Assembly: GCA_049999805.1 (NCBI GenBank) | Contig: JBNGIO010006239.1 | Location: 90,743 to 154,742, forward strand | Direction of reading: 5' to 3' | DNA from: Folioceros fuciformis | Lineage: Eukaryota | DNA length: 64,000 nt | Shown here: one piece after another, positions 913-59,245 of the stretch | Layout: each line of letters opens with the position of its first letter | How positions within the stretch are numbered: the stretch's first letter is position 1 | Position numbers and translations under genes: made by a program | Notes under the pieces: model-generated | The model's input: only the letters and a program-made list of their open reading frames with translations | Databases searched by the model: none | What the model was told of the DNA's origin: nothing

Positions 913-1069
913 AGCAACGGATCAGTAGGTTTTTTGATCTCGGGAGCGGTCCACAGTCATCTACATGTTCCGGATCGACACGTTGTACCTTCGCTGCTGA
1001 GAAGTCGATGTTTGGTGAGGAGCTGTGCAATACTCCTGCCGCAATACTCCTGCCGGTGTTGTACCCTCT

Positions 1070-7365: not shown

Positions 7366-8539
7366 GGCTGCAGCTCCTGGCACTGGGCCGCGTCAGATCA
7401 GCAGAAGGCTACACACAATTCAGCCTCCCTAAAGCCGACTGCTCCTCTTTCCGAAGCCGCAGTCTCAGAATTCTCCATGACCAGCTGTTTCCATCCAGCC
7501 GGCGGCGGCGGCGGCGACGACGGAGCAGGGGAAAGAGCCTGGTGGCAGCACGGCGTAACCCAGAACGCTTGGAGGGGAGCAGGAGCCTTGAAGCCCGTAG
7601 GCCGCAGGCCTGAGCGGCACACAGCAACCGAAGAGTCTCGTGTAACGTCCACCACAGCGTGGCCTTCACAGGGCCACCAGTCTCCGCCTTCGGACCTGTT
7701 GGACAATGGACACCCGCAATTTTATTCACCCTGTCCACCTTTTTTTATGCTTATTTGCAAGCCATCCTTGACTCTGGCCCCGCCACGCCCTGAAAAACGG
7801 AACGAAACTAAACGAAACGAAAACGGCAAGACCGCCGAACTCGACCCTCGCGGTGGACGGTCCGACGCCGTCAAGTATTGAACCCCGGACGGTATCCACG
7901 GGTCCCCTATTTAGCCGCCCACGTCCATTTACCGAAAATTTTTCCAGTTTTTGGGACTTATTCCATACGTCGTGGTGCGGCCTGCCCACATATTCTGAAG
8001 CCGGAAAGGGTCTCTCTCACCGTTGGAACGCTCCCACCAAGCTTTCATGGTTCGACCCAATGCGCGTCAACTCCACTGTCTTGTGTCAAGCTATATGGGC
8101 GATGGTTGTATGATATCGCATTAAAATAATAAGATTAATAAAGATATTCTTATTAATGTAGCTACTATAACATGACGAAAATCTGAGTCCCTCACTTTTG
8201 TGAGGAAACCATGTCTGCTTTCAAAAAAGGATAAAGCAAAGAAAAGATAGGAAAGAATGAAAGCATGAAAGCCTCGTGTTCAAAGGGCTCTATCCTAAAA
8301 AAGAGGACCACATCTCTTTGAAGTTGGAATCAAGTTTTAGATTCTGCTGGCATGTTGCTTTATGTTATCTTGCTTAGAGAGTGACGTCCTTTTGGCTATA
8401 CTAATTTATGTCACCAAATAGTTGTGAGGTAACGAGAGTCAGAGGGTGATCTTAGTAGAACTATAGACAAGGATGAGTTGAAAGATTACCAGGCAGTTGA
8501 TGGTGCTTGTGGAGTTGGTTGAAGACCTTCTTAAGGTCC

Positions 8540-8775
8540 TAATGAATTTTATTTTTTGTGCTCGGCTTAAGAAGTGTGTGAATGCGTTTAAGAAGAAACC
8601 ATGATAATGGGACTTGGCCAAGCTAACTAGAAAGATCTTCATTGACAAGATGGTGGATGAATTTTATTTTTTGTGCTTGGCTTAAGAAGTGTGTGAATGG
8701 GTTTAAGAAGAAACCATAATAATGGGACTTGGTCAAGCTAACTAGAAAGATCTTTAATGATAAGATGGTGGGAGA
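8540..8775. repeat. tandem duplication of about 115 bp inside AT-rich TE-derived sequence
   Basis: gaattttattttttgtgct(c/t)ggcttaagaagtgtgtgaatg...gctaactagaaagatct occurs twice in succession. Confidence 0.75.
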
Positions 8776-9379
8776 GCAACTAAGAACGGCAAAGTGGACT
8801 TGCCAAGCTTCACAATCAATATTAAATGACAATTGAAGTTTGAGGAAGGTCACCTAGAGTTTAAGGAGATTCACTACAAGTCCACCATGATTCAAAAAAG
8901 TCTGCTGGAGTATAAATTCATCAAAGTGCAAAGAGTCTAAAAGATAAACTCCTAGAAAAAAAAATCCCTTAGGCACATAGTCTTACAACACAAAGACTAT
9001 CCAATGGAGGGAGAGATGGCCAACAATCCTCCAATAACTTTCCCCTTGCTATCACACCCTAAAATGGATAAAATGATTCAAGAGGTGGCACCAAGCATGG
9101 CATTGATATTCCATCCAATTACGCTTATATGTATATGCGTTAGCTTAACCTAATGTCATCTTCAAAGGTGGTGCGTTGCTATTGTTACAAAAGAATGTAA
9201 CAGATCACTATGGATTCTAATAATGAGAAGAAGTTACATTATCTTCTATTTAGGTGATGGATAAAAGTCACGAAAAACTGCCCCAGAGAGTAAAGGACAA
9301 GAAAATCACTTGCTCGTGCAAGAAGTTGAGACATCACTCAATGCATGAACAAGTTTAGATTGCAGATATCTAATCATGT

Positions 9380-11790
9380 ACGCAATCTAAAACTTTTGTG
9401 CTTAGAGACATAAGAGTTCTTAGCATCCAAACTCTTGTGCTTGGAGACATAAGAGTTCTTAGCTCATGCAAAAAGTTCATAGATTACTCATAGTATGTAA
9501 GCAACTTGGATTATGCATATCTATTTATAGATGCAATCTAAACTCTTGGGCATAGAGACATAAGAGTTCTTAGAAATTGAACATAGTTTAAAAATTAACT
9601 CGTTAACTCTTGTTTCAACCTTGAGTCCATAGTGCAAGCTTACATAAACAGCTATTTAACTTATTGAAATTGCTATACGTGAAAAGAGGAACTATCTAGA
9701 TCTGATAAGGAGAAGTGGGAGGTAGCTCTATTATCAAAATATAGTAGTTTGATAGAGAATAACACTTTGGAATAAGTTAAGCTATCTTACGGTTAGAAAC
9801 GAATCCAATATAAACGTATATGTCATATCAAGTTGAAAATTGATGGTAGTATAGACTGTTACAAGGAATGTTGTGTATATTAAGGGATATAGTCAAGTTC
9901 TTAGAGTAAATTATCATGAGACCTTTTCACTAGTCGATAAGTTGTAGACAATTAAATACTTATTAGCATTAGTAGTTGAGTTAGATTTAGACCTACTACA
10001 AGTGGATATCATCATTGTCTTTCTATGTGGTAAATTATATTTCTATGTGGTAAATTTGAAGCTTTATATATAACAACCTAAAGGTTTGTAGATCCTAAAA
10101 CAAGAGACTAAAACAAGAGACATAGTTTGTAAACTTTTGAAATGTATTGATGAATTCAAACAATCTTCTTTTCAAATTTAATAACAAACTCTAACAATCT
10201 CCGTTGAAGTGATATATTGATATAGATAACACTTTTGTAGAGATTAGCTTTGTACGTTGTATTTCTAATGAGAATATATATATTTCCTACGTAAGAATGA
10301 AGACCTTACTATTATTGTTTTACATATGGATGATATAATAAATGCTACAAATAGCAAGACCTCTTATCTAAAGTTAAGACAATGCTTAATTTCAAATACA
10401 AGATGAAGCATATTAAAATTCTTACTCATTGCCTTAAAGTTCAAATTGCTCGAAATACGGAAGAAGGTACACTTAGCATTTATCAATCCAAGTATATTCA
10501 AGAGTTTCTTATATAATTCAAGCTTGAGGTAATACGTGCTACAACCTCTCCACTTGCAGCTAGATAAATCCTATCTACTTAAGATAACCTTATTACAACT
10601 AAGAAACAGGAGAGGATGCTTCATAAACCTTGTACAAAAGCATTAGGATATTTACCTTTCTTTCATGGCTAGACTTGTCTAGACATTACAATTGTTATTT
10701 TCATCATGTCATAATTTTTCTTTAATCTTGATTAAGCTCATTAGGTTACGGTAAAGTGTATGTATCGCTCCTTACTTGGAACTATGGCTTTAGTATAAGA
10801 GATTGGGAACAAAAAGGTTGTTACTTTAGGGATGGTTTGATGCCAATTCCGGAATCAAATATTACAAGGAAAAGCTTATCTAGCTATTGTTTCCCCTTGT
10901 GTAATGCTACTCTTTTATAGACGTACAAGAAGCAACACAATGTGTCTTTTAGCTCAACTGAAAGTAAGTATGTTTGTTTCTCTTAGCTCAACTAAAAGTG
11001 AGTATGCTTTCTTGATACTAGATGATTTTAACTCAATTGAGAATAAGTATGTTTGTATCTCTTAGCTCAACTAAGAGTGAGTATGCTTTATTAATATTAG
11101 ATGGTAAGGACGTAGTAGCTAGAAAATTCTTATTTGAAGATATGGATCAAGTTTAAGGCCCACTGAGCTTATTGTGTTGTGAGAGTATGTCGGCAACAGC
11201 GTTCACCAACTATGTCAAGCACTACGCTTCAACTAAGCACATTGGTGTTCAACATTTTTTAATAAGATAACTAGTTGTTGAGCATTGTGTTAGTGAATAT
11301 TAAGTACCATACTCCAATTAAGTATATTGGTGTTCATCATTTTTTATCAGATAACTAATTGTTGAGCATTATATTAGTAAATGTTAAGTACCATACCCCA
11401 ATTAAGCATACTGGTGTTCATCATCATTTTACAAGACAACTAGTTGTTAAGAATCATGTAACTATTGGGTATGTCCGCATAGAGGAGAACTTTACCCATA
11501 CATTTATTTAAGATTCATCTAAGGCCAAGGATGAGTATCTTTCTTCTACCTTAGGCCTTGTGAACTTATCAATTAGCTCTTCATAAGTAAGAGCTCTTCT
11601 TCATCTTATGTTAACTTATTGCACATTTATGTTCTTATCAAGAGTGAATTAAATATATTTGCTTGTTAGTATCATTTCACTTTTTTCTAGACCTGAGTAG
11701 GAATGTTGAGATTATACTAATTAGAGCCTATTCAGGGCATATTTGAAAATTACTTTTAGTTGTCACGTAGGTTATTAAGATATGTATAGG
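9380..11790 (+). mobile_element. degenerate Ty1/Copia retrotransposon 3' part (RT, RNaseH, PPT, start of 3' LTR)
   Basis: Decayed RT and RNaseH remnants (KLKIDGSIDCYK, YHETFSLV, LHMDDI, SSTESEY, TKHIGVHHHF), with several segments locally triplicated. A PPT-like tract followed by TGTTG (cctgagtaggaaTGTTGAGA) lies at about 11692-11711. Confidence 0.75.
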
Positions 11791-11899
11791 TATCAAAGAT
11801 TTTCACATGTTCTCATGCATTAAACCCTATTGTTCTTATGGCCTTAAACCCTCACGTTTAAACCCTGAACCCTAAAGCTTCTAATACCATGTTCTTGCC

Positions 11900-14800
11900 C
11901 TCTTGCAGGATACACACATTACCATTAGCGAAGCCACACAAAAGTAGAAAAGTTATGGATGCATTCATTCCAAGCCTTAGTAGACTGCTTGAGACCATAA
12001 AGTGTTTTGAACAGCTTACACACCAAGTTCTTCTGGGTGATGTATCCCTCTAGCTTATGCATATAGATGGTCTCATGTAGCTGTCTATTAAGGAACGCAG
12101 TCCTTACGTCCATCTGGTGCATGATGAGTCAATGTTGGGCTGCATAGAACATGATGATCCGAATGGAGGTGGCCTTCATCACTAGGCTATAATGGCTGTC
12201 CGCTTGATAATCGAAACCTGTCATGTTTTTATAGATCGATAAATTGATTAACAGCGAGCACAAGGCANNNNNNNNNNAACACTTTAAACCTAATCTACGA
12301 GGTGCGAAACTATTCTATCCAACAACCTGGTACCTAACTAAAGCCTCTTGCTACCAGTCGAGCCATGTACCGAGTAATAGAGCCATCATGGTGGAGTTTA
12401 AGCTTATAGGTCCATTTATAGGTGATGACTTTCCTATCTATCATGAGGTACAGTTGTGAGTTCCCAGATATTATTATCGATAAGGGATCTATATTCAGAG
12501 TCTATTGCTACTTGCCATTCTGCAGCTTCTGGAGAATTAAGGGCTTTTCGGTATGTTTGAGGTGTACCTATGGGCTCTGTTGGTGAAACAGCTAGAGCAT
12601 GATAGGTCTGAATGAGGTTCATATGAGTGGAATCCTGGTAGGGAATAGTGTTTGGAACAGTTGATGAAGGTGGTTCAACTTGGGTGGCCGAGGATTGGGA
12701 ACTGAAAGAATATTGATAATCCTCCAACCAAGTTGGGGCCTTACAAAGTCGGGTAGACCTATGAGGGATAGGGTTAGAAGATGGATCAAAGGAAAGATCT
12801 GGGAAGAGAGGTGTAGGAATTGCTTGGACTGGAGTATCAAGTATAACTACTTGGTCGTGAATATCTGGGGTATTTGGTATAATGACTTGATCTCGAGTAT
12901 CTAGTGGAGGAATGGATACTGGCTCCCCCTTACGATCAAGGGGAACATAAAAGGAGGCAAGGTCGTCGAGCAGATCCACTGAGGAAAGGGTGGAGGAGAA
13001 CAAGCCATGTTCAGAAAACCGGACACTACGTGAGTAAACAACTTCATCTGAGGAAAGGTCAACGAGTTTGTACCCTTTAATCTCATTTGAGTAGCCAATG
13101 AAAGTAAGCTTCCAAGCCTTATCGTCCCATTTCTTGCGAATATTATCTAAGACATGTGCGAAAGCGAGGCTTTCGAAGATGCGAAGATGGGAGATACACA
13201 GGGTGAATCCATGTCAACGTTCGTAGGGAGTCGTCCGGAACAACTCCTAAGAGGGTAGGCAGTTCTTAATATAACAAGCGGTGGAAACGGCTTCAGCCCA
13301 GAAGCCTTTGGGGAGCTAGGAAAGCTTAAGTAAACGCCTAGACATCTCAAGAACTGTGCGATTATATCCCTCGGCGAAGGAGTTTTGTGAAGGAGTATGG
13401 GGAACAATGTATTGTCATAAGATGCCTTTGCTAGAACAGAAATCACGTAAGGCGTTGGTGGTATACTCGTCTGCGTTGTCAGTGTAAAGCTTACGGAGTA
13501 GGTGGCCAGTGTGGCGCTCTGCTATAGAGATATACTGAAGGAAGCAATCAAAACCTTCGCTCTTATGCCAGAGAAAAAAGATATGGCAGTAGCGGCTCCA
13601 TTCGTCTAAAAAGGTGAGAAAGTATAAATGGCCACCTAGGGAGCTGGTCGACATGGGGCCGTAGATGTCGGAGTGGACAGTCTCAAGAAGTCGTGAAGCT
13701 CGAGTTAGATGAAGATCATTGAAAGGTCTTTTATTAAATTTGCCATACTAGCATGATTCGTAGAAGAAATCCTCATCCAATTTACAATTTAAAGCATCTT
13801 TATACATATGTGTATTTGCAAGTTGACTTAAGTATTTAGGGTTGGCATGCCTAGCCCGGCAGTGCCATAGGTAGCTGGTGGATTGCGGAAGGGTCTACTC
13901 AGAAGAGTGGCTGCTAGCCTAGCTATACTATGGCAGCTCAAGTCGGTAGAGGCCGTGAAAGAGGGTGCCTTACCGATGACCTAATCATTAGGAGATAAGA
14001 AGCTGTGGAGTATGTAGAGCGTACCTGAAAACCTAATAACAAGGGAGTAATCGCTCGAGAGGAGCCGAATTGAGAGTAAGTTCTTTTTCATATCAGGCAC
14101 CTACAAAACGTTCTGGAGGTGTAGGGTTTCGATGTTATATAGCTGGAGGCTTACACCGCTAGAGCCCCTAATTGGAAGGGGACTGTCATCACCGAGCAGG
14201 ATGGTTTGGCCAGGAGTGCACAAGGAATATGTAGCGAAGATGCCTTCGGAGGAGCAAATGAGGTTTGTCGCACCGAAGTCGAGGAACTAATCTTGGTCAC
14301 CTGCTTGGATGACGGACAAGCATATCATAAGGAGTTTGTCGGTACTATCGCGATAGAGCGACGAGGTGACGGTGATATCCACGTGAGGCACATCCCGCCT
14401 AGGTTTACTGGCCTCTTTTTTCCTACATTCATGCTCGAAGTAGCCGGGGATTCTACACTAGTTGCAGAGTCCCTTATTGTTTCTTCTAAAGGCGAATTGC
14501 CGGAAACTACCGATATAGGAACCGGGTGCCATAGGGTTTGATGCTCTCCTCCCAGGTGGGGCAAATCGTGGGTTGCCCCACCTGAAGCCGCGACCGAGTG
14601 CTGCCGTAAGCACGTGTGGGCCGCTACCAATGGTGCCTAGTGATCAGGCTGAGCTAATACAGCTTGAATCTTCTTCGAGAAGGGCTCCAACAACTTCGGT
14701 AAAGGTAACGCTCTTGTGTGGCTGTCCTACAGAGACAACTTGACTAACTTATCTGAGGGTGGCATTTTGTGAACTGACGAAAGTTCGATACCTTGGCAAC

Positions 14801-17793: not shown

Positions 17794-18941
17794 ATGGCGT
17801 GGTTTCGGAGCAGCTCTCGCATTCGGTTGGTCTTTTGGAGAGCGTGGGAGGATGGATGTGGGAGGTAAAGCAGCGGATCATCTTGTCTGATGCTAACCAG
17901 TGCTAGAAGATGTCTTATCCTCAGCTGCATTTCTGCGGTGCGTGTCGCTGCCAGAGTCAGTGCCCATGCCGGCTAGGGCAGGACGTTTGTGATTTCCTTG
18001 TCCAATTACCGTGGATGCGGCAGGAATCCTACACCATCGTTTACCCGAGGCATTAGAGTCAGGTCCAAGCAAGAGGTGATCTTGACGAAGGTACGCACTC
18101 ATTCGGTTTGGTGCAATGCTGTTGATTTGTTGGAGGCATTACCTGTTGGATCGAGGACTAACTACTCTACAGCCTTTGGCAGGGTTGGGGAAGGCCGGGC
18201 AGATCGTGAAGGTTGCGCCAGGCTATGCACGCAACAAGCTCATCCCTGAACTTATTGCCCTCCCCGCCATCGAAAAGTACGTCATCTTGGTTAAAAAGCA
18301 GCTGGAGGTAACCGGGCGTTTCTTCCTTGCCGTTGGTTGCCACTCCTGGCCCCGAAAGTTTTGTTCGGAGAAATACTCAGCTCAAGGAGCGGTGTTTGGT
18401 GCTCATGCACAGGCTGTCCAGCGGTCAGAGGAGAAGCCCGACGACGTGGTTAAGGAAGAGATAAAACCTAAAGAGGACAAGCTCAAAGACGTCAGTGTGA
18501 TTTTAAAGAGGCTGGACTCTGGCCGTGTGGTATGCCGTTCTTCATCTCTGCTATCAGCGAATGGTATCGCTACTTGGTGCTTGGGTCACCTTGGGTGTAT
18601 TCTGCTTCCAACAAAGTTGCTTGAATGTGCAGGTCATAAGGAAGGAGCTCGGTAAAACCAACTCTTTGCAGTTTTCCATCAACAAGGATGAAGTCGTAGC
18701 TGAGGTCTGGTTACTCACTCAACTGCAAGCGGAAGTAGCCCTTGACCTTTTCTGATGGACTTTCGTGGGTGCGCAGGTCCAGAGACAGTTAGGGGTCCTC
18801 GTACAACCTGCAAACTTGGAGATGGACGTTCCTATATCAACATTAGGGGAGTTTGAAATTCCTCTCAGATTTTCAGAGAATCTAGCTCTGCCTGACGGGA
18901 AAGTGAAGCTGTATTTAAGGATCAAGGTTCGAAGGAAATAG
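17794..18941 (+). CDS. RPL9: organellar (mitochondrial-type) ribosomal protein L9 (bL9m), multi-exon
   Basis: EVILTK|PLAGLGKAGQIVKVAPGYARNKLIP matches the L9 N-domain. The C-domain reads EVQRQLGV..NLEMDVPISTLGEFEIPLR..LRIKVRRK*. Start at 17794 (MAWFRSSSRIRLVFWRAW, presequence-like) is inferred with an intron at about 17865-18023. Confidence 0.85.
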
Positions 18942-22466: not shown

Positions 22467-23061
22467 CGCACCGACATTGGCTGCCACCGAAATGTCCAAG
22501 TTTCGTGTTTGAGTGTGTAGGGCTCGCACGGCGGGAAACCGCGACTGTTAAATAGTTTGACGTTATTTCTCAATGTTGGGCACATGCAACAGGGACATCG
22601 CATTTGTTGTTTGCTCCATATTTTCATCCAATCCTTGTTCGGTGTCATGAAGTTACAAAATCTCTAAACGTCGAATGTGAGGTGATCTTATAAGGATACA
22701 TGGATTTCCAGTTTCAATGCGCCAACCATAAAACTATAGTATTTTTGAAAATTTGAACTATGTAGTTGTGATCAAATTTGATAAGATAGTTTTACGTTAG
22801 ACAACTTTGCTTGCTTTGTATGATGAATACATCACGCCACACATTCTATTGCCATACTCTATCATCTAAAATTCTAACTTAGGGAAGGATATCTTCTATC
22901 CATCCTTAAAGCTTCCTAGGTTTATAGTCCTAGAGGCTCCATACAAACTTCATTACTTACACTTTTTTAAGAAGTTTCTATTAAAATCTAAGGAACCAAA
23001 GAACTACAAGGCATATTAACTTTCCTGACCTTTCAATCACCCCTTAGCCACTCCACTCTTG

Positions 23062-23167
23062 GCTCTGGAGTTCCAGCTATATTCTTGTTTCCAGCTATAT
23101 TCTTGTTTTATTTAGCAATAAATATAGGGTGCTAAATAAAACAAGAACATAGCTGGAACTCTAGAGC
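23062..23167. repeat. fold-back inverted repeat (MITE-like or hairpin)
   Basis: gctctggagttccagctatattcttgttt..tatttagca pairs with tgctaaataaaacaagaacatagctggaactctagagc. The left arm has an extra 18-nt duplication. Confidence 0.8.
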
Positions 23168-23328
23168 TAAACAAAGCAAGACAGTTTTGTTTAGCAACAG
23201 GTGTTGTACATATTTATATAAGCTCGTGTTACAAGCATGTGAAAGGGATGGCATGGCCACGGTTTCGATTGGCAGACTGTGCCACAAGCTGAAAAGAGCC
23301 GCGTCTTCCGATGAAGACTGACGGGAAG

Positions 23329-25936
23329 ATGGTTACAGTATGGCAACCGGATCCCTTGTGGACCCAACAAGTTGGTCTGTGTACCGGAATTTTTCGAGGA
23401 TCTCCCGCTCAGCTCACATCAGTTTGTCAACCGCTGGGTAAGCTTCAGGGCTCCAGACGCAACAGTGAGAGAGCCCAGCTCTTTCACTTCCGAGAGATGT
23501 GTGGTTGGGGAAGGATCTGGAGCGATGGTGGTTGCTGGGAGCAGGATCTTCTGCGGCAGCAGTTGTTTCAGGACCTGCTATGTGGTGGGACAAGAGGCGA
23601 GATGAGAGGAGTTCCCGTTCGCCTGACTTTCCGCGTAAGGGGGCCGGCGAGGTCCTGTGGTTAAACAGAGTGTTCACGCCAGCTTGAGTTGATGAGCAGC
23701 TGGGTTCTTGGGATATGCGGGGATCATAGGGCCTTTCCTTCCAACGCGTAGGCTGAACGTGGCAGGTGTGTGGGATCTGAAGTGGGCGCAGTAACGACTG
23801 TGACGGTGAGCACGTTATGCCAGAAGTGGAAGCTTTCGGAGGCTGTTGGAGCCGTGGAATATCTGGTGCAGAGAGACTGTCCTATTGTATACTGTGCCAA
23901 AACTGTGCGCAGCTAAGAAGGATCTGGTTGTGGGGTGGACGGCTGCATAATCTCACTGTCAAACTTAGTTACGTGTCGAGTGCATAATTGGGGAACCATG
24001 TATTGCGCATGTACGTTTCTGGAGGAAGGTTAGAGGAGGGCATGAATGTGTTCATAGGGGGGTGGGGAAAACCAAATGCTTTCCTGTGGTTTTTGCATGA
24101 CATCAGCGCATCCTAAACATGGGAAACCTTATGAGACGGTACATCTGTGCCACGAGATGCGTAGGCCAGGTGCGAAGGCGGATGCTTTTTGGAAGTTTGG
24201 CCACAAGGGATGCAGTGATTTGGAATACACTTTTATCTGGGTACGCACAGCGAGGGCTCGGCCAGGAGGCGTTTTTTCTGTATGAGCAAAGAGAGCAGGA
24301 GGGCCTCATTTTGGCTGTCCAGGTTACCTTCTGAAGTTCGGTGTCAGCAGTGGTGCCTGACAGAAGGGCAGGCAACTGCACTCCCAGATTTGGATCGAGG
24401 GCAGCTTGACAATGTACTGGTGAGCAACTGCTTGGTGGACATGTCTGCCAAATGTGGCGAAATGGGAGAGGCACGAGGGGTTTTCGAAAGTTTGGCCACA
24501 AAGGATGTGGTGACATGGAATGCACTGGTTTTGGACTAACGATGTTACTTTCGCTGGACTTCTGACTGACTGTGCAAGAACTCTGGGCGCACTAAAGGGC
24601 AGGCAGCTGCACTCACAGACTGTGGAAAGAGGGCTGCTGGATGGCACACGCGTGAGCACCTGCCTTGTGGACATGTTTGCAAAATGTGGCGAACTGGAGG
24701 AGGCACGCAAGGTTTTTGACAGCTTGGCCATAAAGGATGTGACGACATGGAAAGCTCAGGTAGCGGGGTATGCACAACAAGAGCTCGGTGAAAAGGATCT
24801 TGTTTTGTATGATCAGATGGAGCAAGAGGTTGTGATTTGGCTAACGATGTTACTTTTGCTTGCCTTCTGAATGCCTGTGTCAGCACTGGTGCCCTACAGA
24901 GGGGCAGGCAGTTGCACTCACAGATTGTGGAAAGAGGACTGCTGGATCGCACACCAGTAGGCACCTGCCTTGTGGACATGTAGGCAAAATGTGGAGAACA
25001 GAATGAGGCACTCCAGGTTTTTGACAGTTAGCCCACAGAGGATGTCGTAACATGGAATGCCTTGATATGTGGGTGTGGAATTTGTGATGAAGGTTCCTAC
25101 ATGCTAGTTTGTCTTGAGGAGATGTTAGTCGCGGTTTTTCTTAATGACGCTAGATTTGTGTTTTGGTAGCATGCAGTCATCAGGTACATGAGGGTAGGAA
25201 GCGCCTTGATTCCACGCCTGAACAGCATGGCATCAAACCTACTATAAAGCATCAAACCTACTATATTATGATTGATCTTCCTGCAGAGAACATGCTATTT
25301 TCATGTGAGAGCCAAAGCAATACTGTGGGACTGAGGTGTGTGCTGAATGCCTGCACAAATCACGGAGACATAAAGTGGGCGGCATGGTGTTTCGAAGTCT
25401 TATCACACTAGAACCTCAGTAGGCGTGCGCGCATGCGCTCATGCCAATGCCCGTGTAGATGCAGGAATGTGGAACGATGTAGAAAGACTTGAAAACCAGA
25501 GAATGATTGCAGGAGCCAGAAAGAACCCTGCAGTTGCGTGCATTGAGGTGAGAAAGACGGTACATACATTTGTGGTGGGAGGAAACAGAGATGATGATCT
25601 GGCCACCAAAGTAGAGAGCATGAATGCACGTCTGAAGCAGGAGTGTGGGCAAGTACCAGAAACAACAGTGGTGTTGAAGCCAGTGGGTGAAGCAAAAGGA
25701 AGATGCCGTTCGTAGTCATGCTGAGAAGCTGGCTTTGGGGTTTGGTCTCCTGGACATCCCTAGTGACACACCTCTGCTCTGTTGGTAACGAAGAATCCAC
25801 GGATGCACAGTGATTGCCACAGTTTCACCGACATCATGTGAAGGATTGAGAACAGAGGCATTGTGTTGTTGAGAGGGATGGGTACCGTGTGCATCGATTT
25901 GCAGGTGGTTGTTGCAGCTGTGAGGGCCGACCTTGA
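23329..25936 (+). pseudogene. pseudogene paralog of the PDF-PLS-PPR-DYW:KP(GRP) gene
   Basis: Starts MVTVWQPDPLWTQQ, like the intact copy. Has one frameshifted PDF motif (WWDKRRDERSSRSPDFPRKGAGEVLWLN), PPR fragments (CLVDMFAKCGELEEAR), RKNPAVACIEV and HAEKLAL, and ends CSCEGRP-TGA at 25934-25936. Numerous frameshifts and in-frame stops. Confidence 0.92.
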
Positions 25937-26491
25937 GAAAGTCGATGACGTTCCGTCGTCATGCTCTAGGGTTTACATTATGTCAGCGTACGTACTGGCT
26001 TTGGAGAAAAAAAACTTCTTTTTTCCTGAAGAACAAGAACGCTGGCGTATCTCATGCCTGCCTGGACATCAGCATGTAGATATACCGTGTCCTAAGCCGT
26101 CTCAGAGCCTACCGTAGAGATGTCCGGTCATGAACTCTAAGAATCCTACCTGATGGCCCCAGACTCGATTTTCCTTAGGAGGGCCTAAGTACGTGTGAAT
26201 GATTCAGTCATGCTTGAACTGGCCTTGTTTCCATACAAGGGAACGAGCTAGTCTCGAGGGACGCGCAATTGGGCAATTGTGGTGCATGCTGTATATCCAT
26301 GCATGAATGTTCACGACGTCACAAGGAACTGAGGCTGCTCCTGAGGAGGATCCTCTGTACGTGGGGCTTCATCATGTTGTAACTCTTGGCAGTCATGGGA
26401 AACTACATCCACCTTCCCAAAGAAGATGGATTCTCAGCACCCGCATTCCACAGTTCACCTTTGCAGCCAGACTCTGGCCCCTTGGCCAATC

Positions 26492-29400
26492 TCACGGTCG
26501 ACCCTCACAGCTGCAACACCCATCTACGAATCGATGCACACGGTATCCATCCCTCACAACAATGTCTCTCTTTTCAATCCTTGACATGATCTCTGTCGAA
26601 CTGTGGCAGTCACTGCACATGCGGAGGTTCTTCGTTACTAGCAGAGGTGTCCCATCTGGAGTGTTCAAGAGACCGAACGCCAGAGCTAGCTTCTCAGCAT
26701 GCCCGCAGAGAGAATCTTCCTTTTCCTTCTCGGACAATGGCTTCAACACCAATTTGGTGTGTGGTACGTGGCCCCCTTCTTGTTTCAGACGTGCATTCGT
26801 GATCTCTACCTTCGGCACGAGATCATCCTTCTTTTCTCCCACCACAAATGTATGTACCTGCCTTTTCACCTCAATGCTCGCCACTGCAGGTTTCTTCTTG
26901 GCTCCTGCTAGCATCCTCTGTGTTTCTATCCTATCTACATCGGTCCACCTACCTGCATCTGCATAGGCATTGGCCATGAGCACATATGCGGATGCATTCT
27001 GAGGCTCTAATGTAACGAGACTCTCAAAACACTTTCTAGCCCTCTCTACATCCCCGTGACTTTTGCAGGCATTCAGCAAAGACGTCAAACCCACAACATT
27101 GCTTTGGCTCTCACATGACAACAGCATCTTCTCTGCCTCATCTAAACGGCCGGCACGCCCTAGCAGATCAATCATGCAAGTATAATGCTCCAGAGTGGGT
27201 TTGATACCATGCTGTTCCACCATGGAATTGAAATGCGCGCGGCCCTCGTCCACCAGTCCCATACGACTGCATGCTGCTAAAATGCAAGTGTAAATAGCAT
27301 CATCAGGCTGAATACCTGCAGCTAACATCTCCTCAAAGTAATCTGATGCCTTGTGGACATCGTCCGAAGTACCACAACCAGCGATGAGGGCCGTCCAAGT
27401 CATGACATTCTTCATGGGCAAGCTGTTGAAAACCCCCCGTGCAGCTTCCAGTTCGCCACATTTTGCATACATGTCCACTAGGCAGGTGCCCACAACTACG
27501 TTATGCAGCTGTCCGCTTTCAACAATCTGTGAGTGCAGCTGCCTGCCCGTCTGTAAGGCACCAACGCTTGCACATGCCTTGAGAAGGCAAGCAAAAGTAA
27601 CATGGTCAGCCACAAGCAGGCCCTCCTGCTCCATTTGCCCATACAGTAGAAGCGCCTCATGGCCTAGCCCTTGCTGTGCATACCCTGCAATCAGCGCCGT
27701 CCATGCCACCACGTCCTTTGTGGTCGAGCTGTCAAAAACCTGACGTGCTTCGTCCAGTTCACCACATTTTGCATACATGTCCACCAGGCAGGTCCCCAAC
27801 ACTAAGTTATCTAGCTGCCCTCTTTCCACAATCTGCGAGTGCAGCTGCCTGCCCTTCAATAAAGCACAGCCGCTTGCACAGGCCTTCAGAAGGGAAACAA
27901 AAGTGACATGGTCAGGCTCAATCAGGCTGTCCTGCTCCATTTGTTCATGAAGAACAAGCGCCTCTTGACAGAGCCCATGATTTACATACCCAGCAATCAG
28001 AGCATTCCATGTCACCACATTCTTCGTGGTCAAGTTGTCAAAAACATATCGTGCCTTGCTCAGTTCGCCACACTTTGCATACATGTCCACCAGGCAGGCA
28101 CCAACAAATAAGTCAAGAGGAATACCACTGCGCAACACATCAGCGTGCACTTTTCGGCCAGATTCCAAGTCTGAAGCTAATGCACAAGCTTGAAGGGCAG
28201 CGACAAAGACGTGCGCATCTGCTTTCGCATCTGACCCACGCATCTCATGGTACAGTCGTATGGCCTCCTTAGGCTTCCCATGTTTGGCATGTGCCGAGAT
28301 AATGGAAAACCACATGAAAGCATCTGACTTCCCTACCCTGGTGAACACATCCATGGCCTCGTGTAGCATTCCTCCACTTGCATACATGCGAAGAACATGG
28401 TTTCCCAAGTACGTATCGGACTCATACCCAAGTTCGACAGCCAGATCATGAACTCGTTGACCTAGAACCACATCCTTGTCAACTGTGCACAGTTTTAGCA
28501 CAGCACAGAGTAGAGACTTGGGAACAGGATAATCTGTCTGCGCCAGACTCTCCAGGGCTCCAACAGCTTCGGTACTTTTCCCTTGCTCACAAAACGTGCT
28601 CACGGCTACAGCCGTGACGACGCCCATTCCCGATCCTGCTCTCTTGCGGGGTTCTTCAGCCTTGAATTTGGAAGGAAAGGAACCACGAGCCATCCGCATG
28701 TCCAAAGAACCGAGCTGCTCATCCACCCAATCTGGCTTGAACATGCTGTTTAACCACAGGACCTCGCCGGACCCCTTACGCCGGAAGTCTGGCAACTGGG
28801 AGTTCTCTCGTCTGTTATCCCACCACACGGTAGGGTCCAAAAACAAATCTTGCCACAAGGCCTCCTGCTCCTGGCGACGACGATCGCTGGAAAATTCCAA
28901 CCCGCCTAGACACTTTGGAAGCGGAAGTGCTCGGTTCTGCACACTCCTGGGGCTGAAACCTTGATCGCTAGCCAGAAGTTGACTCCCCAGTGTCGGGTGA
29001 GAAATGGGACGGTCTATTTGCAGCATAGATTCCAGTCCAACAGCCTCAGTAAGCTTCCCATGATGACATAACGTACCTACCGTTACGCCGGATTCAGGCT
29101 TATGCTTGGAAGGAGAGGCACCAGAACCCATCTGCATATCTAAGGCATCGAGCTGCTCATCCACCCAATCTGGCTTGCACATGCTATTTAACCACAGGAC
29201 TTCGCCGGACCCCTTACGCCGGAAGTCAGGCGAACGGGAGCTCTTCTTATCTCGTCTGTTGTCCCACCACATGGTAGGGTCGACAAAAAATTGTTGCCAC
29301 AAGCGCTCCTGCTCTTGGCGACGACCATCGCTGGGGACTCCTTCCCCGCCCACGCATTTGCCCGGCCGTGGAAGTGCAGGGTTCCTTACCGTACTGCACC

Positions 29401-29527
29401 TGGAGGCTTGGTTGCTTTCCAGCAGCTGACTACCTAAGGTGAGGTGAGCGGGTCCTCCTCCTCGAATCCCTGTAAACCCACCAAGTTGTTGGGTCCACAA
29501 AGGGTCAGCTTGCCATACTGTGGCCAT
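26492..29527 (-). CDS. PLS-class PPR RNA-editing factor with DYW:KP (GRP-type) domain and two N-terminal OSB-type PDF motifs
   Basis: Uninterrupted 1011-aa ORF. PDF-like motifs at aa 76-126 and 224-272; about 15 P/L/S repeats ending P2-L2-S2; E1-E2; then KKKPAVASIEV, HAEKLA, NLRMCSDCH and CSCEGRP. Confidence 0.95.
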   Translation of the reverse strand: MATVWQADPLWTQQLGGFTGIRGGGPAHLTLGSQLLESNQASRCSTVRNPALPRPGKCVGGEGVPSDGRRQEQERLWQQFFVDPTMWWDNRRDKKSSRSPDFRRKGSGEVLWLNSMCKPDWVDEQLDALDMQMGSGASPSKHKPESGVTVGTLCHHGKLTEAVGLESMLQIDRPISHPTLGSQLLASDQGFSPRSVQNRALPLPKCLGGLEFSSDRRRQEQEALWQDLFLDPTVWWDNRRENSQLPDFRRKGSGEVLWLNSMFKPDWVDEQLGSLDMRMARGSFPSKFKAEEPRKRAGSGMGVVTAVAVSTFCEQGKSTEAVGALESLAQTDYPVPKSLLCAVLKLCTVDKDVVLGQRVHDLAVELGYESDTYLGNHVLRMYASGGMLHEAMDVFTRVGKSDAFMWFSIISAHAKHGKPKEAIRLYHEMRGSDAKADAHVFVAALQACALASDLESGRKVHADVLRSGIPLDLFVGACLVDMYAKCGELSKARYVFDNLTTKNVVTWNALIAGYVNHGLCQEALVLHEQMEQDSLIEPDHVTFVSLLKACASGCALLKGRQLHSQIVERGQLDNLVLGTCLVDMYAKCGELDEARQVFDSSTTKDVVAWTALIAGYAQQGLGHEALLLYGQMEQEGLLVADHVTFACLLKACASVGALQTGRQLHSQIVESGQLHNVVVGTCLVDMYAKCGELEAARGVFNSLPMKNVMTWTALIAGCGTSDDVHKASDYFEEMLAAGIQPDDAIYTCILAACSRMGLVDEGRAHFNSMVEQHGIKPTLEHYTCMIDLLGRAGRLDEAEKMLLSCESQSNVVGLTSLLNACKSHGDVERARKCFESLVTLEPQNASAYVLMANAYADAGRWTDVDRIETQRMLAGAKKKPAVASIEVKRQVHTFVVGEKKDDLVPKVEITNARLKQEGGHVPHTKLVLKPLSEKEKEDSLCGHAEKLALAFGLLNTPDGTPLLVTKNLRMCSDCHSSTEIMSRIEKRDIVVRDGYRVHRFVDGCCSCEGRP

Positions 29528-30299
29528 CTAACAGGGACCCTTCTCAAGCAGATGAGGAGCACAACAAACTATCTAGTCGGTGGACGGACGCCTAGATTCT
29601 CCGCACCCAGGAATGCCACCCTGTAGTCAAGGAAATCATGGCTCCGTGTGGCAATCACAAGGCAAATCATAGCTGCTGCCTTCCCGGTATCTGCATCACC
29701 AAGGTATCAATCCCCCTAGCAACTTGGGACCCTCTTCCAGCATTGTAATGGAGGGCCGAGGACGAGAAGTTACAATCTTCAGTAGCTCCCCGTGCTGCAG
29801 GTCAAGAGGCTTCCTTCACCACCGATGGAATTGCTTTGTTCTCTGGCGATGAAATTAGTATGGTTAAGCCTACTTCATACATTTGTTGCATTGCTGATGT
29901 TCCTGAAATCATAATATCTAATTATGTTTTAAGTTTATAAATTTGATTAAGTCTATTTCGTTGATTTTAATCACAAGACTGCATACGCGGAGCGGCGATT
30001 CAGGTTGGATCCAAATGAAGGCTCGGGTAGTCGGAAGAACGTGGCTCAAATCTTTATAGGTCACATGANNNNNNNNNNCTCGGGTAGTCGGAAGAACGTG
30101 GCTCAAATCTTTATAGGTCACATGAAGTTATTTCAAAATGCACCACATCAAAACTCTAATTACACTTAGCAAGGCGGGAGCCATGATTCAGCTTGGATCT
30201 AAATGCAAGCTCAAGTAGGATCCAAATGCAATCTCAGGTAGTCAAAAGAACCTGGCTCAAAAATTTACATGAAGTTAGTTCAAGGTGCACTACATCACA

Positions 30300-30755
30300 A
30301 TCTTACTTGAACATTGGATCTACACTTGAAACTCTACTTCTACATTGAATTTATAATTTAAACTTGCATTTGGACTTTTAACAAGTTAGAATGCTTTTGT
30401 AAAGATTTTTAGAGATCATCTTGCATACTTCTCATTTTTAGAGATCATTTTTGCATCCTTGCTGTACATTGAAGCTTTGCAAGAAAGTAGTCACTTTGGT
30501 ACACAAAATTCTTTAAGTATCTATCCAGCCGAGGAACGATACCTCTCGTACTTAACAATGTTCTTGTAGATCTTATTCTTTCTTTCACATTGGCTAACTC
30601 TTTGAGATTTTTATTGAATATTAGCAATTGATCATTATCGTTACTTAGCCGATGAAGTACTTCTGTTCAAAACCTCTTAAAGTCTCTACTCCAAATTTCA
30701 AACGAATGTAGACATCATACTTCTCCCAACCATTTGCAAATGTTTATATGTAAAA
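30300..30755 (-). repeat. degenerate copy of the sequence encoding the unknown ORF at 36748-37443
   Basis: Colinear similarity at DNA and peptide level (IFNKNLKELANVKERIRSTRTLLSTRGIVPRLDRYLKNFVYQ versus VFNQKLKELGYVEEGVRYTTTLLSIRGIVPRDRLDRFLKHFVSQ). Confidence 0.8.
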
Positions 30756-34850: not shown

Positions 34851-36747
34851 AGGGGGGGTATTCCATCACGGTGGTGCGTCCAGGTGGGGCGGTGGCTCGT
34901 ACCCCTATGATGGCTAAGTAAAGAGTGCTATGGTGACTCTAATTCGTAATGACGTTGCACTTTAGAATATGTCTTTTATACTATTGTACATCAAAAAATA
35001 TGTTTTGTATGGATTTATTCTTAATAAGCCAAATGGATACCACATTTATAAAAAATTCATAATTAAGAAATTTTTTCTCGAACAAGTACTTACATGGGGT
35101 CCCTTAAGAAAATATGCCCTTTTTTATAGGGTAGGTGTAAGGACCTTTTTAAATATTAAAAATATAAGAAAATATGATCATTTTATGCCAAATAAGAACA
35201 CTTTTGCATAAACTTCTTTCTTCTTTCTTGTGAGAATACAAACATGAGATCTCCAAGCCAAATAGGGGGGAAAGATGAAGGTAATTCACTTGTTCTAACA
35301 AACTCATGAATGGTACATTAGGGCTATCAATACCAGCACAAAAAGGAGTTATCCTAAGAAGTGGAAAAAGAGTCCTCATTTTGGAAATTGATGTCGTTTC
35401 AGCCCAAAAGTGCCTTTCAAGTTCGTTAAAACACTTGTAAATAAGGCATAAAATAGACGTTCTTGTAGAAGCGGAAACTTCCAAACCTGCATAACTTGCA
35501 CCTTCTACATCTAGGAGCATGCAAAAATCGGACTACATAATGTTGAAATTCTTAAAAAAAACAAAACCTATCATCTTTTAGTTTTTTGGGTGTAAGAAGG
35601 CCGTAACGTCACGCAAGTAGACTTCCAACGATAGTACAATTAACATAGTAGAGACAACTAAGGATGGGGACTAATCTAAGAGAGTGGGAGAAACAGGGTA
35701 AGTGGACGAGCACCGCCCATCTTAAAAATCCCACCACTACCGTAACAACAATAATTGATTGTCTCACATAAGTATCACATTTAGTGTTAAGTGAACAAAT
35801 CTTTGAAGAGTAAAACACAAGTTAATATTGTGCGATGCATTCAAAGCAAAAAGAAACAACTTGGATGTTTGACCTAAACACTATTGTGTAGAACTTTATA
35901 CTGCTAAATACATACTCTTTTTTTCTCCTAAAGCATTAGATCTTTGTGTTATGCAAATACTTAATGGTTTTGTTTCGAGTTGAACAAAACACAAGTAAGC
36001 AATGAAACAAGTTTTATACCCACTAAGCAAGGTGCTTGACCGTCAAGATGCTTGGCCATTGATATGCTATACAAATCCCTCTCCATGCAAAAACTCTCTT
36101 TCCCTTAAAAGGTGAGGAGAGGAGAAATGCATGACATAAATGTTATACTTGTTTTATGTTCCTCAAATTCAACCTTTAAGAGAACACATTAATACTAGCA
36201 TTGGCTAGAATTAGGGTAGGTAGAACCTTTCCAACTCATGACAACCATCACTTAAGACCTGAACCCTTTGAAAGACACTTGGAGTCACATTGGAAGGTTA
36301 TGCTAAGCCACTATTGCAAGGATCATATACTAACCCTAGTTCACATAAACAATTAAAAAGAGCCATAATGATCCTCATCGAATGCAAAAATGCCATTGGA
36401 AGGGGGAGACTTAGGCCTTTAAGTGAGTATATCCCAGAAGTGATCCCTTTACATTGTTCCTTATGCCTACTTAAAGTGCGGTCTGGTCTATGTGGCATTC
36501 ATCGACTAAAAACCCAAAGGTGCTTTGCAAGGAAGTTTATGGNNNNNNNNNNNNNNNNNNNNNNNNNNNNNNNNNNNNNNNNNNNNNNNNNNNNNNNNNN
36601 NNNNNNNNNNNNNNNNNNNNNNNNNNNNNNNNNNNNNNNNNNAGACGTCCTTCAAGATGGATGAAAGGAATCTTAAAACAAATCTTTATAATTTACTTAA
36701 AGTTATTTCAAGGTACACCACAACAAAACTCTAATTGAATATTGGAT

Positions 36748-37443
36748 CTATACTTGTAACTCTATTTCTACATTGAATTTATAATTCAAAGCTGCCTTTG
36801 GACATTTCACAAGTTGGAATGCTTTTGTAAAGATTTTTATAGATCGTCTCGCATACTTTTCCTCAAATGCTGTACATTGAAGCTTAGTAAGAAAGTAGTT
36901 AATTTGGGACACAAAATGCTTTAAGAATCTATCGAGCCGATCACGAGGAACAATACCTCTTATACTTAACAATGTGGTTGTGTATCTCACTCCTTCTTCC
37001 ACGTAGCCTAATTCTTTGAGTTTTTGATTGAATACAGGCAATGGATCATTACTTAGCCGATGAAGTACTTCTGTCCAAAATCTCTTGAAAGTCTCTACTC
37101 CAAATGAATGTAGACATCGTACTTCTTCCAACCATTTCCACATGTTTATATGTAGGTGTGCACTTGCAAGTGTTTCATCTATATGATTTTGAATAACCTC
37201 ATACACGTGCATCCAATTAGCTTGTTGGTCAATGGGGAACGCCACACCTTGCAGGTTGTAGATTGATGTTAGTTCACTTTCTTCAAGTTCTTGTCTATCC
37301 ATCGCCATATGATGCATGTTGGCGATTGGTACTAGTTTGCCTTCTACAAAGAGTGTCTTGGTGATTGGTACTAGCTTTCCTTCGTCAAAGAGTGCCTCCA
37401 TATCAACTTTTCTCGTAGTTTCAACTCTTGTACAAATGTTCAA
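36748..37443 (-). CDS. 231-aa ORF of unknown function, probably repeat- or TE-associated
   Basis: Long ORF in AT-rich DNA with a second decayed copy at 30300-30755; no motif recognised. Confidence 0.35.
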   Translation of the reverse strand: MNICTRVETTRKVDMEALFDEGKLVPITKTLFVEGKLVPIANMHHMAMDRQELEESELTSIYNLQGVAFPIDQQANWMHVYEVIQNHIDETLASAHLHINMWKWLEEVRCLHSFGVETFKRFWTEVLHRLSNDPLPVFNQKLKELGYVEEGVRYTTTLLSIRGIVPRDRLDRFLKHFVSQINYFLTKLQCTAFEEKYARRSIKIFTKAFQLVKCPKAALNYKFNVEIELQV

Positions 37444-39085
37444 ACTAATTCTTGTCTTCCTGGCTTTATAACCTACAACCGTGTATTACACTCGTCGAAG
37501 GCCAAGGATATGGTGCTCAATTTTTTTTAANNNNNNNNNNATTTTTTTTAAGTTATGCACATTGTGTAGACACCAAGTTCCAAGGACAACAATTAGGAAT
37601 ATTTTCCCTCGCATACACCAAGTTTCAAGGATGGCTCTTAGGAATATTTGCCCCTACAAAGACATGCAAACAATCGTAAGCCAAGGATGACAAGTGAAAA
37701 CATTTGTCCCTATAGAGATATGCAAATAATCATAACCTAAGGGTAACCATTAGGAGTAGTTTTCCAACAAAGACATGCAAACAATCATAACCCAAGGACA
37801 ACTATTCTTGCATGAAAATAGAAGCATGTCTACGCGCCTAGGTATGAGTACACTAGCATGCCAACACCCTTGGCCCTTGGAAAATCCTATCTACTCAAAA
37901 AATGAGGAGGTTATTTCCAAGGGGAATAACCTAAAAAGAGCCAAATCCCAACAAGAGCAAACCCTAAACCCTAAACTGCTTCAAGTATCATTCTTGAAAG
38001 TACTTACTACTCCCATAAATTATATTGTGATGGAAAAGGCTTATTGGTGCCAATGACGTCATGTACACTAGTGGGTCTTCTAAAGATGGCATTGACCAAA
38101 GACCTTATCGAAAGGATGGATGGGTATGTTTTGCCTAAGTAAAAGTAAGACTTTAGGGCTTACTTTTTAGAATGGCTTTCTTAGGACACGACGGGTGGTT
38201 TTGGCTTTTGATTAGGTGGTGTATTATCATTCTATATGGTTGGAGTTGTTTTTGGGAAAGCATATCTTGCAGTGTGTGCCCAAGCATTGGCACGCTGTTA
38301 AAAGAAGACTATTATTGAGAAAAGAGGGAGAACTCATTCTTGTGACTATCATAGACCTTGTACACTCCTTCACAAGCCTCGAAATTTTTTTTTGTCCATG
38401 ATTCCAGGGATCAAACTTTAAGTACGGGACTTCGTTGGAGGGTGACTCGGCAAGATCGATGGGACGCTTCTAATTGCTGTCTCCATCTGTCCAAGGCGTT
38501 GTGAGACTCGGTACTTTTTCGCTTTCCTCCCTTGTAGCACTAACCAGTTGGCAGTGACATTACTTATATGAGCGTCCCATTCCGTCACATTTTGAAATAT
38601 GGGTTGACGAGAAAGAAATACAAGACGTGGGTTCAAAGGGGACTGTATCTGTACAATATTTGAAGTAATGGGGTGATAAATGAAATGAGATCTGGTGTAC
38701 GGCGTGGAAGGCGGGACATGGGGGACTAGGACGTGCTGTTGGAAATGGAGCGTGAAATATCAGTGGCCTCGGGCCATGACTGCGACGACTATGGCCACCG
38801 TGAAGACTCGACATTTATGCATTCGAGGGTGAAGTCTCGCGGTCCTGCCTGCCCGTTTCCGAATCTTCCTGCCGGTTGCCAATCTGTGGGAAGCAGCACG
38901 GCTGGTGTTTGACAATCTGCTGACCTCGACCAGCTCGGGAACCGGCCATGGGATCCAAATTGCATGACCCAGCGGAAGCCATGGAGCAGGGGCAGGTGTC
39001 GGGGTAGTCGGGAACTGCAGGGGCTGGCGCCGGGCGGCGGATCGTGAAGCTGTGGAAAGCGGAGGGAAAGGGGAGCCCAGGCGAG

Positions 39086-58089: not shown

Positions 58090-59245
58090 GCTCTTGGCCC
58101 GGCCTCACATTTAGGAGTTTCAAATTGCACCAGTAACTTTCACAATTGCAACAAGATTCCGCCTGGGTTTGGCCCACACTTTGGCTATTTTCCTCTCTAC
58201 ATGCATTGGAGGGGCTACTATCATGGACTCATGGTCCCATCCGGCATGTCGTGCCATCGAGGAACAGAGCATTGTCACCCATTATATAATTCAGGATGTT
58301 ATGTTCTTTATGGCTAGAAAGTGTGGTTTCCTTCCCTACAGGTAGTGTTTGTATACTTTGCGCAACGTGATTTCATTTCCAGCTAACCTTTTTTAATAAG
58401 GGGGAATAGGTTTGTGTGGTTGATGTGGTTGTTACGGATACTACTAGGCACTCGATTTGCAATTACATTATCATAAACCCTTCTTGATGTACAAGAGTGG
58501 GTTGTGCGATTTCCAAATTCTGTACATATTCTCCCTTGCAAGATGGACATGTTTTCATCCCCTTGCTCGTGAAACCCCATGGGGCCCTGGGGCTATGGGC
58601 AATAACTTTTTGGTGTCTTCAAGGAGTGCACAAAGGTATATCATAGTCATAGAAATGAGGTTCTTTTTATGTCTTCGGTCATGGCCTTCGTTTGACAATG
58701 CATATCTATCACATTTCAAAGGGTGTTGGGCGATGTGATTTTCTTAACAGCATATCTATCACATTTCAAAGGGTGTTGGGCGATGTGATTTTCTTAACAN
58801 NNNNNNNNNNNNNNNNNNNNNNNNNNNNNNNNNNNNNNNNNNNNNNNNNNNNNNNNNNNNNNNNNNNNNNNNNNNNNNNNNNNNNNNNNNNNNNNNNNNT
58901 ATCTATCACATTTCAAAGGGTGTTGGGCGATGTGATTTTCTTAACAACATATCTATCACATTTCAAAGGGTGTTGGGCGATGTGATTTTCTTAACAGCAT
59001 ATCTATCGCATTTCAAAGGGTGTTGGGCGATATGATTTTCTTAACAGCGACAAGTATTAAGTTGCTTCTTTGGCAATGGTTGTAGGTAGGCCTTTTGTTA
59101 TTTCGCATTACGATATTTTGGGAGCTATAGGAAATTTTGGGAAAGATATTCAAGGAGGCTAGTCCCCCCTTCTGCTTTTGACCCTCTTTGCGATATTCCT
59201 CCTCGTCTTTTGAATAGATGAAAATTTTCATCTCTTTTTTCAATA
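58090..59245 (+). mobile_element. RLE-type non-LTR retrotransposon 3' fragment, copy B
   Basis: FTIATRFRLGLAH, DVVVTD, FHPLARETPWG; similar to copies A and C and ends catctctttttt; interrupted by a 50-bp array and a gap. Confidence 0.6.
58699..59048. repeat. 50-bp tandem repeat spanning an assembly gap
   Basis: Near-identical units of gcatatctatcacatttcaaagggtgttgggcgatgtgattttcttaaca on both sides of the N run. Confidence 0.85.

Follow-up and report, generated by a model that had tools for sequence, protein, structure and literature searches.

Probable PPR-DYW:KP editing factor with N-terminal PDF motifs, a candidate for U-to-C RNA editing, in nuclear DNA of a hornwort-like plant

Can a single natural gene be named as a candidate for an enzyme that converts U to C in organellar RNA? 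To our knowledge, U-to-C is the one pyrimidine transition without a biochemically characterised natural enzyme. We analysed a stretch of 64,000 nucleotides (the window in the following; contig JBNGIO010006239.1 of assembly GCA_049999805.1, Folioceros fuciformis, positions 90,743 to 154,742), in which an original prediction had pointed to an intact natural U-to-C editing enzyme with a DYW:KP catalytic domain. We found there a gene that is probably a nuclear gene of a hornwort-like land plant, encoding for a site-specific organellar RNA editing factor of the pentatricopeptide repeat (PPR)-DYW:KP class, GRP subgroup, and a candidate for editing from U to C.

Gene structure and protein architecture

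The gene is an uninterrupted open reading frame (ORF) of 1011 codons plus stop on the minus strand, which does not require an intron and has a stop codon immediately upstream of its ATG. Its parts, in positions of the window, are the following.

26492..29527, minus strand: whole coding sequence
29111..29344, minus strand: PDF motif unit 1 (OSB-type), residues 62-139; profile E-value 6.2e-33, 13/13 invariant PDF residues
28682..28897, minus strand: PDF motif unit 2, residues 211-282; profile E-value 1.4e-28, alignment, and direct repeat at the DNA level (D5/D7, 80-84%)
27098..28621, minus strand: PLS-type PPR array, residues 303-810; Pfam PPR E-value 1.8e-63, PPR_2 E-value 5.3e-61
26894..27097, minus strand: E1 and E2 extension motifs, residues 811-878; Pfam E_motif PF20431 at residues 824-886, E-value 2.3e-16, and segmentation
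26495..26893, minus strand: DYW:KP domain of the GRP subgroup, 133 amino acids, residues 879-1011; motif map, PF14432, model and fold match
26693..26701, minus strand: HAE active-site triplet (zinc-binding His, Ala, catalytic Glu), residues 943-945; read from the sequence, H and E invariant in the alignment
26630..26632, minus strand: codon of Lys88 of the domain (residue 966); motif map, invariant in the DYW alignment
26606..26617, minus strand: CSDC zinc-binding motif (CxxC), residues 971-974; sequence, motif map and alignment

The C-terminal part of the protein reads ...AGAKKKPAVASIEV...CGHAEKLALAFG...LRMCSDCH...CCSCEGRP, followed by the stop. The range 26492-26902 of the original prediction extends from the stop codon through the codon of A876, three residues ahead of K879, the first residue of the domain. 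Segmentation at the usual borders of PPR motifs gave a degenerate P motif with L1 and S1, three P1-L1-S1 triplets and P2-L2-S2, followed by E1 and E2, and the motif lengths were regular (31, 35 and 36 amino acids). The Pfam matches and the segmentation thus agree on the architecture of a PLS-class editing factor, and an array ending P2-L2-S2-E1-E2 is described as the form typical of editing factors (PMC10482289). Pfam family DYW_deaminase (PF14432) matched residues 919-1009 with an E-value of 6.8e-33. Among 177,635 distinct sequences of the PDB only three matched the last 142 residues at E ≤ 0.001, namely a synthetic PPR-DYW protein (9kfx, E-value 9.4e-40), DYW1 (7w86, 4.1e-30) and OTP86 (7o4e, 6.4e-29). 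With such E-values in both Pfam and the PDB, the feature is real and far beyond chance.

Class marks of the catalytic domain

The DYW:KP class is described as having KP instead of the PG box, a hydrophobic amino acid, in most cases Ala, at the centre of HxE, conserved zinc ligands and Glu, and a C-terminal end other than DYW; most of its members are 132-133 amino acids long and are without the xHP residues (PMC9478123, PMC11332814, PMC11845758). Within the class, Lys88 is reported to be essential for U-to-C editing (PMC11845758) and Met92 stands at the position of Val95 of PG domains (PMC9478123, PMC11845758). As a mark of the hornwort GRP subgroup, Glu replaces the Lys which in PG domains forms a pair with the Asp of DYW (PMC9478123).

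All of these reported marks of the class and of the subgroup were present in the domain, whose relevant residues in its own numbering are K1, P2, H65, A66, E67, K88, M92, C93, C96, H97 and E101, with GRP at the end. The domain starts with KPAVASIEV, in line with the original prediction of a replaced PG box (KKKPAVASIEV), which had given no strand; the motifs lie on the minus strand. Also borne out were HAE in place of the HSE of PG-type rows, read directly at domain positions 65-67, an intact CxxC within CSDCH, and a GRP terminus in place of DYW, an ending shared with the four closest domains. At 133 amino acids the domain has KDD opposite the SHP of 9kfx, together with a gap of three residues, so that xHP is missing. 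Lys88 and Met92 are both present. E101 aligned with a Lys in 9kfx, 7w86 and 7o4e, and its equivalence to the published K103 is one by alignment, the counted PG residue differing by one.

In an alignment of the query with 24 short DYW proteins of both types, the invariant residues were the H and E of HxE, the equivalent of Lys88, both Cys of CxxC, the His following it, a later His and the last Cys. Every one of them is kept in the query domain. An AlphaFold2 model of the last 142 residues reached a mean predicted local distance difference test (pLDDT) score of 92.1. It superposed on 9kfx_A with a template modelling (TM) score of 0.88 and a root-mean-square deviation of 1.7 A, on OTP86 (7o4f_A) with a TM score of 0.75 and on DYW1 (7w86) with 0.65, while ordinary cytidine deaminases ranked far below the DYW structures in the fold search. 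The predicted fold is that of DYW deaminases.

Phylogenetic placement

We searched the 142-residue end against 1.84 billion representative proteins and obtained 2495 proteins at E ≤ 0.001, the best 150 of which were taken further. Together with the query they gave 151 rows, and 135 of these were retained for the tree; the 16 excluded rows were without HxE...CxxC, had fewer than 72 residues upstream of the match, or had a tail outside 33-41 residues. A quick maximum-likelihood tree of the 135 domains fell into two sides of 100 and 35 rows (support in the SH-like approximate likelihood ratio test, SH-aLRT, 89). The larger side showed HSE in 99 rows and HQE in one, a PG box in 77 and tails of mostly DYW or DFW, and the smaller side, to which the query belongs, consisted almost entirely of rows without W-ended DYW-like tails. 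Within it the query fell into a subclade of 13 rows (HAE in 12, HVE in one; support 94) as sister to a GRP-ended domain, P0003 (97).

Because grouping on the diagnostic residues themselves would be circular, the tree was repeated after masking of the tail, the PG box and the central position of HxE, and the query then stood in a clade of eight rows without W-ended tails (97). A more careful tree of 60 rows, comprising all 35 of the query's clade and 25 random rows of the other 100, supported the split between KP and PG domains with 95/90 (ultrafast bootstrap/SH-aLRT), the pair of query and P0003 with 99/90 and the clade of eight with 97/91; these values are rough, as the bootstrap was not fully settled. 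The phylogenetic check that had been proposed for this locus therefore placed the domain with the KP-type and not the PG-type domains, also with the diagnostic columns masked.

Among the proteins fetched, the four closest domains were 71-74% identical to the query over 133 residues, and all had HAE and the end GGRP. The named rows of the KP clade came from the hornwort Nothoceros aenigmaticus (65-67% identical) and the fern Ceratopteris richardii. In a collection of 15 billion proteins no copy of the identical protein was found. P0165, the best full-length relative, combines one PDF motif with a PPR array and a GGRP domain; its identity to the query was 59% over residues 330-1011, and 49% when both whole proteins were aligned over 927 columns. 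The query domain is a member of the DYW:KP class and of its GRP subgroup, as the original prediction had read from its features for the class.

The gene and its decayed paralog

Two features went beyond the original prediction: the N-terminal PDF motifs, which are treated below, and a neighbouring pseudogene.

23329..25936, plus strand: decayed paralog (pseudogene) with one PDF motif, a PPR array and a DYW:KP domain ending CCSCEGRP; tblastn pieces and DNA similarity

The pseudogene and the intact gene are arranged tail-to-tail, with 555 bp between the former and the stop codon of the latter. The tblastn pieces of the pseudogene are spread over three frames with many stops, and its end CCSCEGRP is the same as that of the gene. 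On the DNA level the two were 65-81% similar in BLAST pieces and 70-74% in the four longest in-register pieces. The similarity covers 23327-25938 on one side and 26490-29529 on the other, which is the coding sequence plus or minus two bases and excludes the flanks.

We simulated neutral change of the gene by substitutions only, without indels, in 5000 runs per level. The frame of 1011 codons stayed open in 429/5000 runs at 2% substitutions, in 12/5000 at 5% and in 0/5000 at 10%. Provided that the gene's own lineage accounts for at least a modest part of the divergence, the open frame therefore indicates purifying selection, under which the gene appears to stand on the basis of this simulation rather than of a ratio of nonsynonymous to synonymous substitution rates (dN/dS). 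The intactness that had been claimed for the enzyme was confirmed: the gene is intact, and its 1011-codon frame keeps the catalytic and zinc-binding residues as well as Lys88.

A recently silenced or never-expressed copy in a family of fast turnover, with an open frame and no function, might look similar. The decayed twin at 555 bp speaks for such a copy, and so do thousands of contigs of the same organism that are 90-99% alike over parts of the gene, unusual code residues in two of the PPR motifs (see below) and the absence of the exact protein from the 15-billion-protein collection. We nevertheless regard this explanation as quite unlikely, as the frame is open despite a divergence of about 19-35% from the twin in the matched pieces, a neutral change of 5% already left it open in so few runs, and all invariant catalytic and zinc residues are kept together with 13/13 invariant PDF residues in both units.

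The thousands of short contigs were seen over 22500-30500 in the organism that holds the gene and in a second one. They resemble parts of the gene, the PDF units among them, at 90-99% and fit a very large family of paralogs. Separately, three sequencing runs of one organism contain identical contigs. One of these runs may, at a guess, be of RNA, and its identical contigs cover the gene, the pseudogene and the spacer 25875-26556, with the outer flanks uncovered. Among the sequencing runs searched, no RNA data set containing the gene was listed.

Predicted target and direction of the reaction

In the mechanism that we propose for the putative editing factor, the PLS-type array with its P2-L2-S2-E1-E2 end would read single-stranded organelle RNA, one nucleotide for each P or S motif. 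The deaminase-like C-terminal domain would thereby be positioned over a U lying four nucleotides 3' of the base that S2 recognises, and would convert this U to C with its zinc site (His65, Cys93, Cys96), Glu67 and Lys88. According to the published PPR code, position 5 and the last position of P and S motifs specify A as T/S+N, G as T/S+D and U as N+D, and the S2 motif stands opposite position -4 (PMC10482289). Applied to the array, this code predicts a target with U(-16), U(-12), G(-10), G(-9), A(-7), G(-6) and A(-4) upstream of the edited U, seven defined positions being too few to locate the site without an editome.

For the direction of the reaction we rely on published consensus designs. 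The designs KP2 and KP3, which are based on GRP sequences, showed 26% and 22% U-to-C editing in E. coli with zero C-to-U, and edited only from U to C in bacteria and human cells alike; activity was lost in HAA and AxxA mutants (PMC9478123). The original prediction had likewise stated that domains of the KP type have shown U-to-C activity in heterologous assays. A K88A change abolished U-to-C editing and produced C-to-U editing (PMC11845758). By analogy with these designs, the protein described here would act from U to C.

It might instead be an active editing factor that works from C to U, or in both directions like the design KP6, which had both activities in human cells; changes from HAE to HSE failed to uncouple one reaction from the other (PMC9478123). 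The direction has been switched by single substitutions close to the active site (PMC11845758), and the query keeps all residues needed for deamination. We hold this to be unlikely, however, as both designs built on GRP sequences were U-to-C only (PMC9478123), Lys88 is intact in the query, and its domain has the 71-74% identity to four other GRP-ended domains noted above.

Several points weigh against an active natural U-to-C factor. The motifs opposite -15 (P1, Phe/Asp) and -13 (S1, Ala/Asn) fall outside the PPR code, and the first P motif is degenerate. The labels KP and PG in the trees were assigned from motifs by the analyst, and the KP clade has organism names on two rows only. The gene adjoins a dead copy and belongs to a very large family of high turnover (PMC13386178). 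The activity published was that of consensus designs and not of a natural protein, KP6 catalyses both directions, and the Ala of HAE does not set the direction (PMC9478123). Purified KP2 and KP6 gave zero U-to-C editing in vitro, and the reaction is reported to proceed via a protein-RNA crosslink whose release is unexplained (PMC11332814).

All data on U-to-C activity come from consensus designs that stall as such crosslinks (PMC11332814). A natural gene of the GRP type that is intact and apparently maintained by purifying selection could reasonably be chosen as a candidate for a native U-to-C enzyme. The query adds a member to a published class and is not a new kind. Hornwort genomes contain about 1,600-2,300 PPR genes each (PMC13386178), and many of these are presumably of the DYW:KP class. 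With PPR genes in such numbers, the query is not special as a class member.

N-terminal PDF motifs

A unit of roughly 146 residues is present twice within residues 1-330, its two copies corresponding to the DNA repeats D5 and D7. In this part of the protein Pfam found no family even at E ≤ 10, and the best score in the Protein Atlas was 0.77, below the informative level. A comparison of the N-terminus with proteins of similar length gave 0/7505 candidates at E ≤ 0.001. This search missed existing relatives, since a search among shorter proteins and a profile did find them, including long PPR proteins. Among the shorter proteins, 33/1419 candidates matched residues 60-280 at E ≤ 0.01, and 15 of the 33 were named OSB1-4; three bryophyte matches (Riccia sorocarpa, Marchantia polymorpha and Marchantia paleacea) carry the SSB domain PF00436. 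In an alignment with 13 of the matches, both units kept all 13 invariant PDF residues (WWDNR, PDF, K, LW, P and W). Judged by sequence, the N-terminal units are the PDF motif of plant OSB proteins. A model of one unit (pLDDT 82) consists of a helix, two short strands and a helix, and a Foldseek search of it against the PDB gave 0/21 listed matches at E ≤ 0.001.

The PDF profile matched 25/120 PPR proteins from a search in which residues 330-1011 alone had served as the query. Diphasiastrum complanatum contributed nineteen of these, and Calypogeia fissa, Adiantum capillus-veneris and Sphagnum fallax one each; the others were two JGI proteins and one Logan protein. It also matched 5/151 proteins of the DYW-domain set, among them the GRP-ended P0003, and the pseudogene likewise has one PDF motif. 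The fusion of PDF motif and PPR array is thus seen in PPR proteins of a lycophyte, a fern, a moss and a liverwort, and the profile matches indicate that it is real, not limited to the KP type, and spread over several lineages of non-seed plants.

No link between the PDF motif and PPR proteins was found in the literature searched, outside the coverage of which lay Gutmann 2020, Gerke 2020 and Cheng 2016, and a 2026 survey of OSB evolution contained 0 occurrences of "PPR" and 0 of "fusion". We tentatively suggest, as a possibility that we still regard as doubtful, that a PDF motif followed by a PLS-PPR array and a DYW or DYW:KP domain is an undescribed architecture of editing factors, common to hornwort-like, lycophyte, fern, moss and liverwort proteins. 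A motif for binding single-stranded DNA would then have been recruited to assist editing factors, and could secure the single-stranded RNA that lies upstream of the PPR footprint or retain the factor at the nucleoid of emerging transcripts. For the query we would guess at a second contact to single-stranded nucleic acid or a tether to the organelle nucleoid. If truly undescribed, the fusion would be a new accessory module for the toolkit of editing factors, and it is a more original lead than the membership in the class.

Many PPR proteins work without a catalytic domain. The protein might therefore be a non-catalytic binder of RNA, or of RNA and, by its PDF motifs, DNA, with a role in the stabilisation or processing of transcripts or as a link between RNA and nucleoid. 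The PDF motif of OSB1 is reported to suffice for the binding of single-stranded DNA (PMC6963530). Such a role is very unlikely in our view, since the zinc ligands are complete and Glu67 and Lys88 are kept as well, which a non-catalytic function would not require, and the array ends in the form described for editing factors (PMC10482289).

Host and genomic context

Hornworts, lycophytes and ferns are the groups from which the DYW:KP class has been reported (PMC13386178), and for its GRP subgroup hornworts are named (PMC9478123). As the nearest named relative moreover comes from Nothoceros, a hornwort-like host is the best reading of the evidence gathered here, which does not prove it. The window is eukaryotic nuclear DNA. 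Other ORF pieces in it look like exons of ordinary plant nuclear genes.

1019-2485, plus strand: F-box
4581-5198, minus strand: ABC1 kinase-like
18086-18652, plus strand: ribosomal L9 N-terminal
52833-53669, minus strand: flavin amine oxidase
63501-63998, minus strand: protein kinase

Fragments of retroelements were seen at 12437-13213 (minus strand, retroviral polymerase SH3-like domain) and 61065-61889 (minus strand, zf-RVT); their presence close to PPR genes is in line with published work in which the spread of these families is put down to retroposition. Nine runs of N are assembly gaps (six of 10 bases and three of 100 bases), at positions 12268, 30069, 36543, 37531, 44614, 48328, 51647, 58800 and 59863. 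The gap at 30069-30078 lies between two identical direct repeats of 47 bases (30022-30068 and 30079-30125), about 500 bp upstream of the start codon of the gene. Blocks of low G+C content (32-36%) were found at 8001-12000, 36001-38000 and 58001-60000, against about 45-55% elsewhere in the window.

Comparison with known systems

With the OSB proteins the query shares the PDF motif, which it carries in two units. Unlike them it is without an OB-fold/SSB domain, as Pfam found none in residues 1-330 and the remainder consists of PPR array and DYW domain, and its PDF motifs stand N-terminal before the PPR array instead of C-terminal behind an OB-fold. For both of these reasons the query is not an OSB protein.

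The closest known system is the GRP subgroup of hornwort PPR-DYW:KP proteins, described for Anthoceros by Gerke et al. 2020 according to papers citing that work, the sequences of which were used by Ichinose et al. 2022 for the design of KP2 and KP3 (PMC9478123). The query resembles it in its PLS array, E1 and E2 motifs, and a KP-starting domain of 133 amino acids with HAE, CxxC, Lys88, Met92, a Glu for the PG-type Lys and the end GRP, and it clusters with GRP-ended domains. In contrast to KP2 and KP3 it is a natural single gene and not a consensus, and it differs from described GRP proteins in that even the closest domains found are only 71-74% identical to it. It further has two N-terminal PDF motifs, which the available text of the published GRP descriptions does not mention (PMC9478123).

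The canonical PPR-DYW:PG deaminases, namely OTP86 (7o4e/7o4f), DYW1 (7w86), moss PPR56 and the synthetic 9kfx, are similar to the query in their fold (TM scores of 0.65-0.88), zinc ligands, catalytic Glu and active-site Lys, in their sequence (E-values of 6e-29 to 9e-40) and in the logic by which a PLS array reads the target. Unlike these, the query has KPAVAS for the PG box, HAE for HSE, Met for Val95 and GRP for DYW, its domain is three residues shorter and without xHP, and it stands on the opposite side of the 95/90 split in the tree. The reaction presumed for it is likewise opposite in direction.

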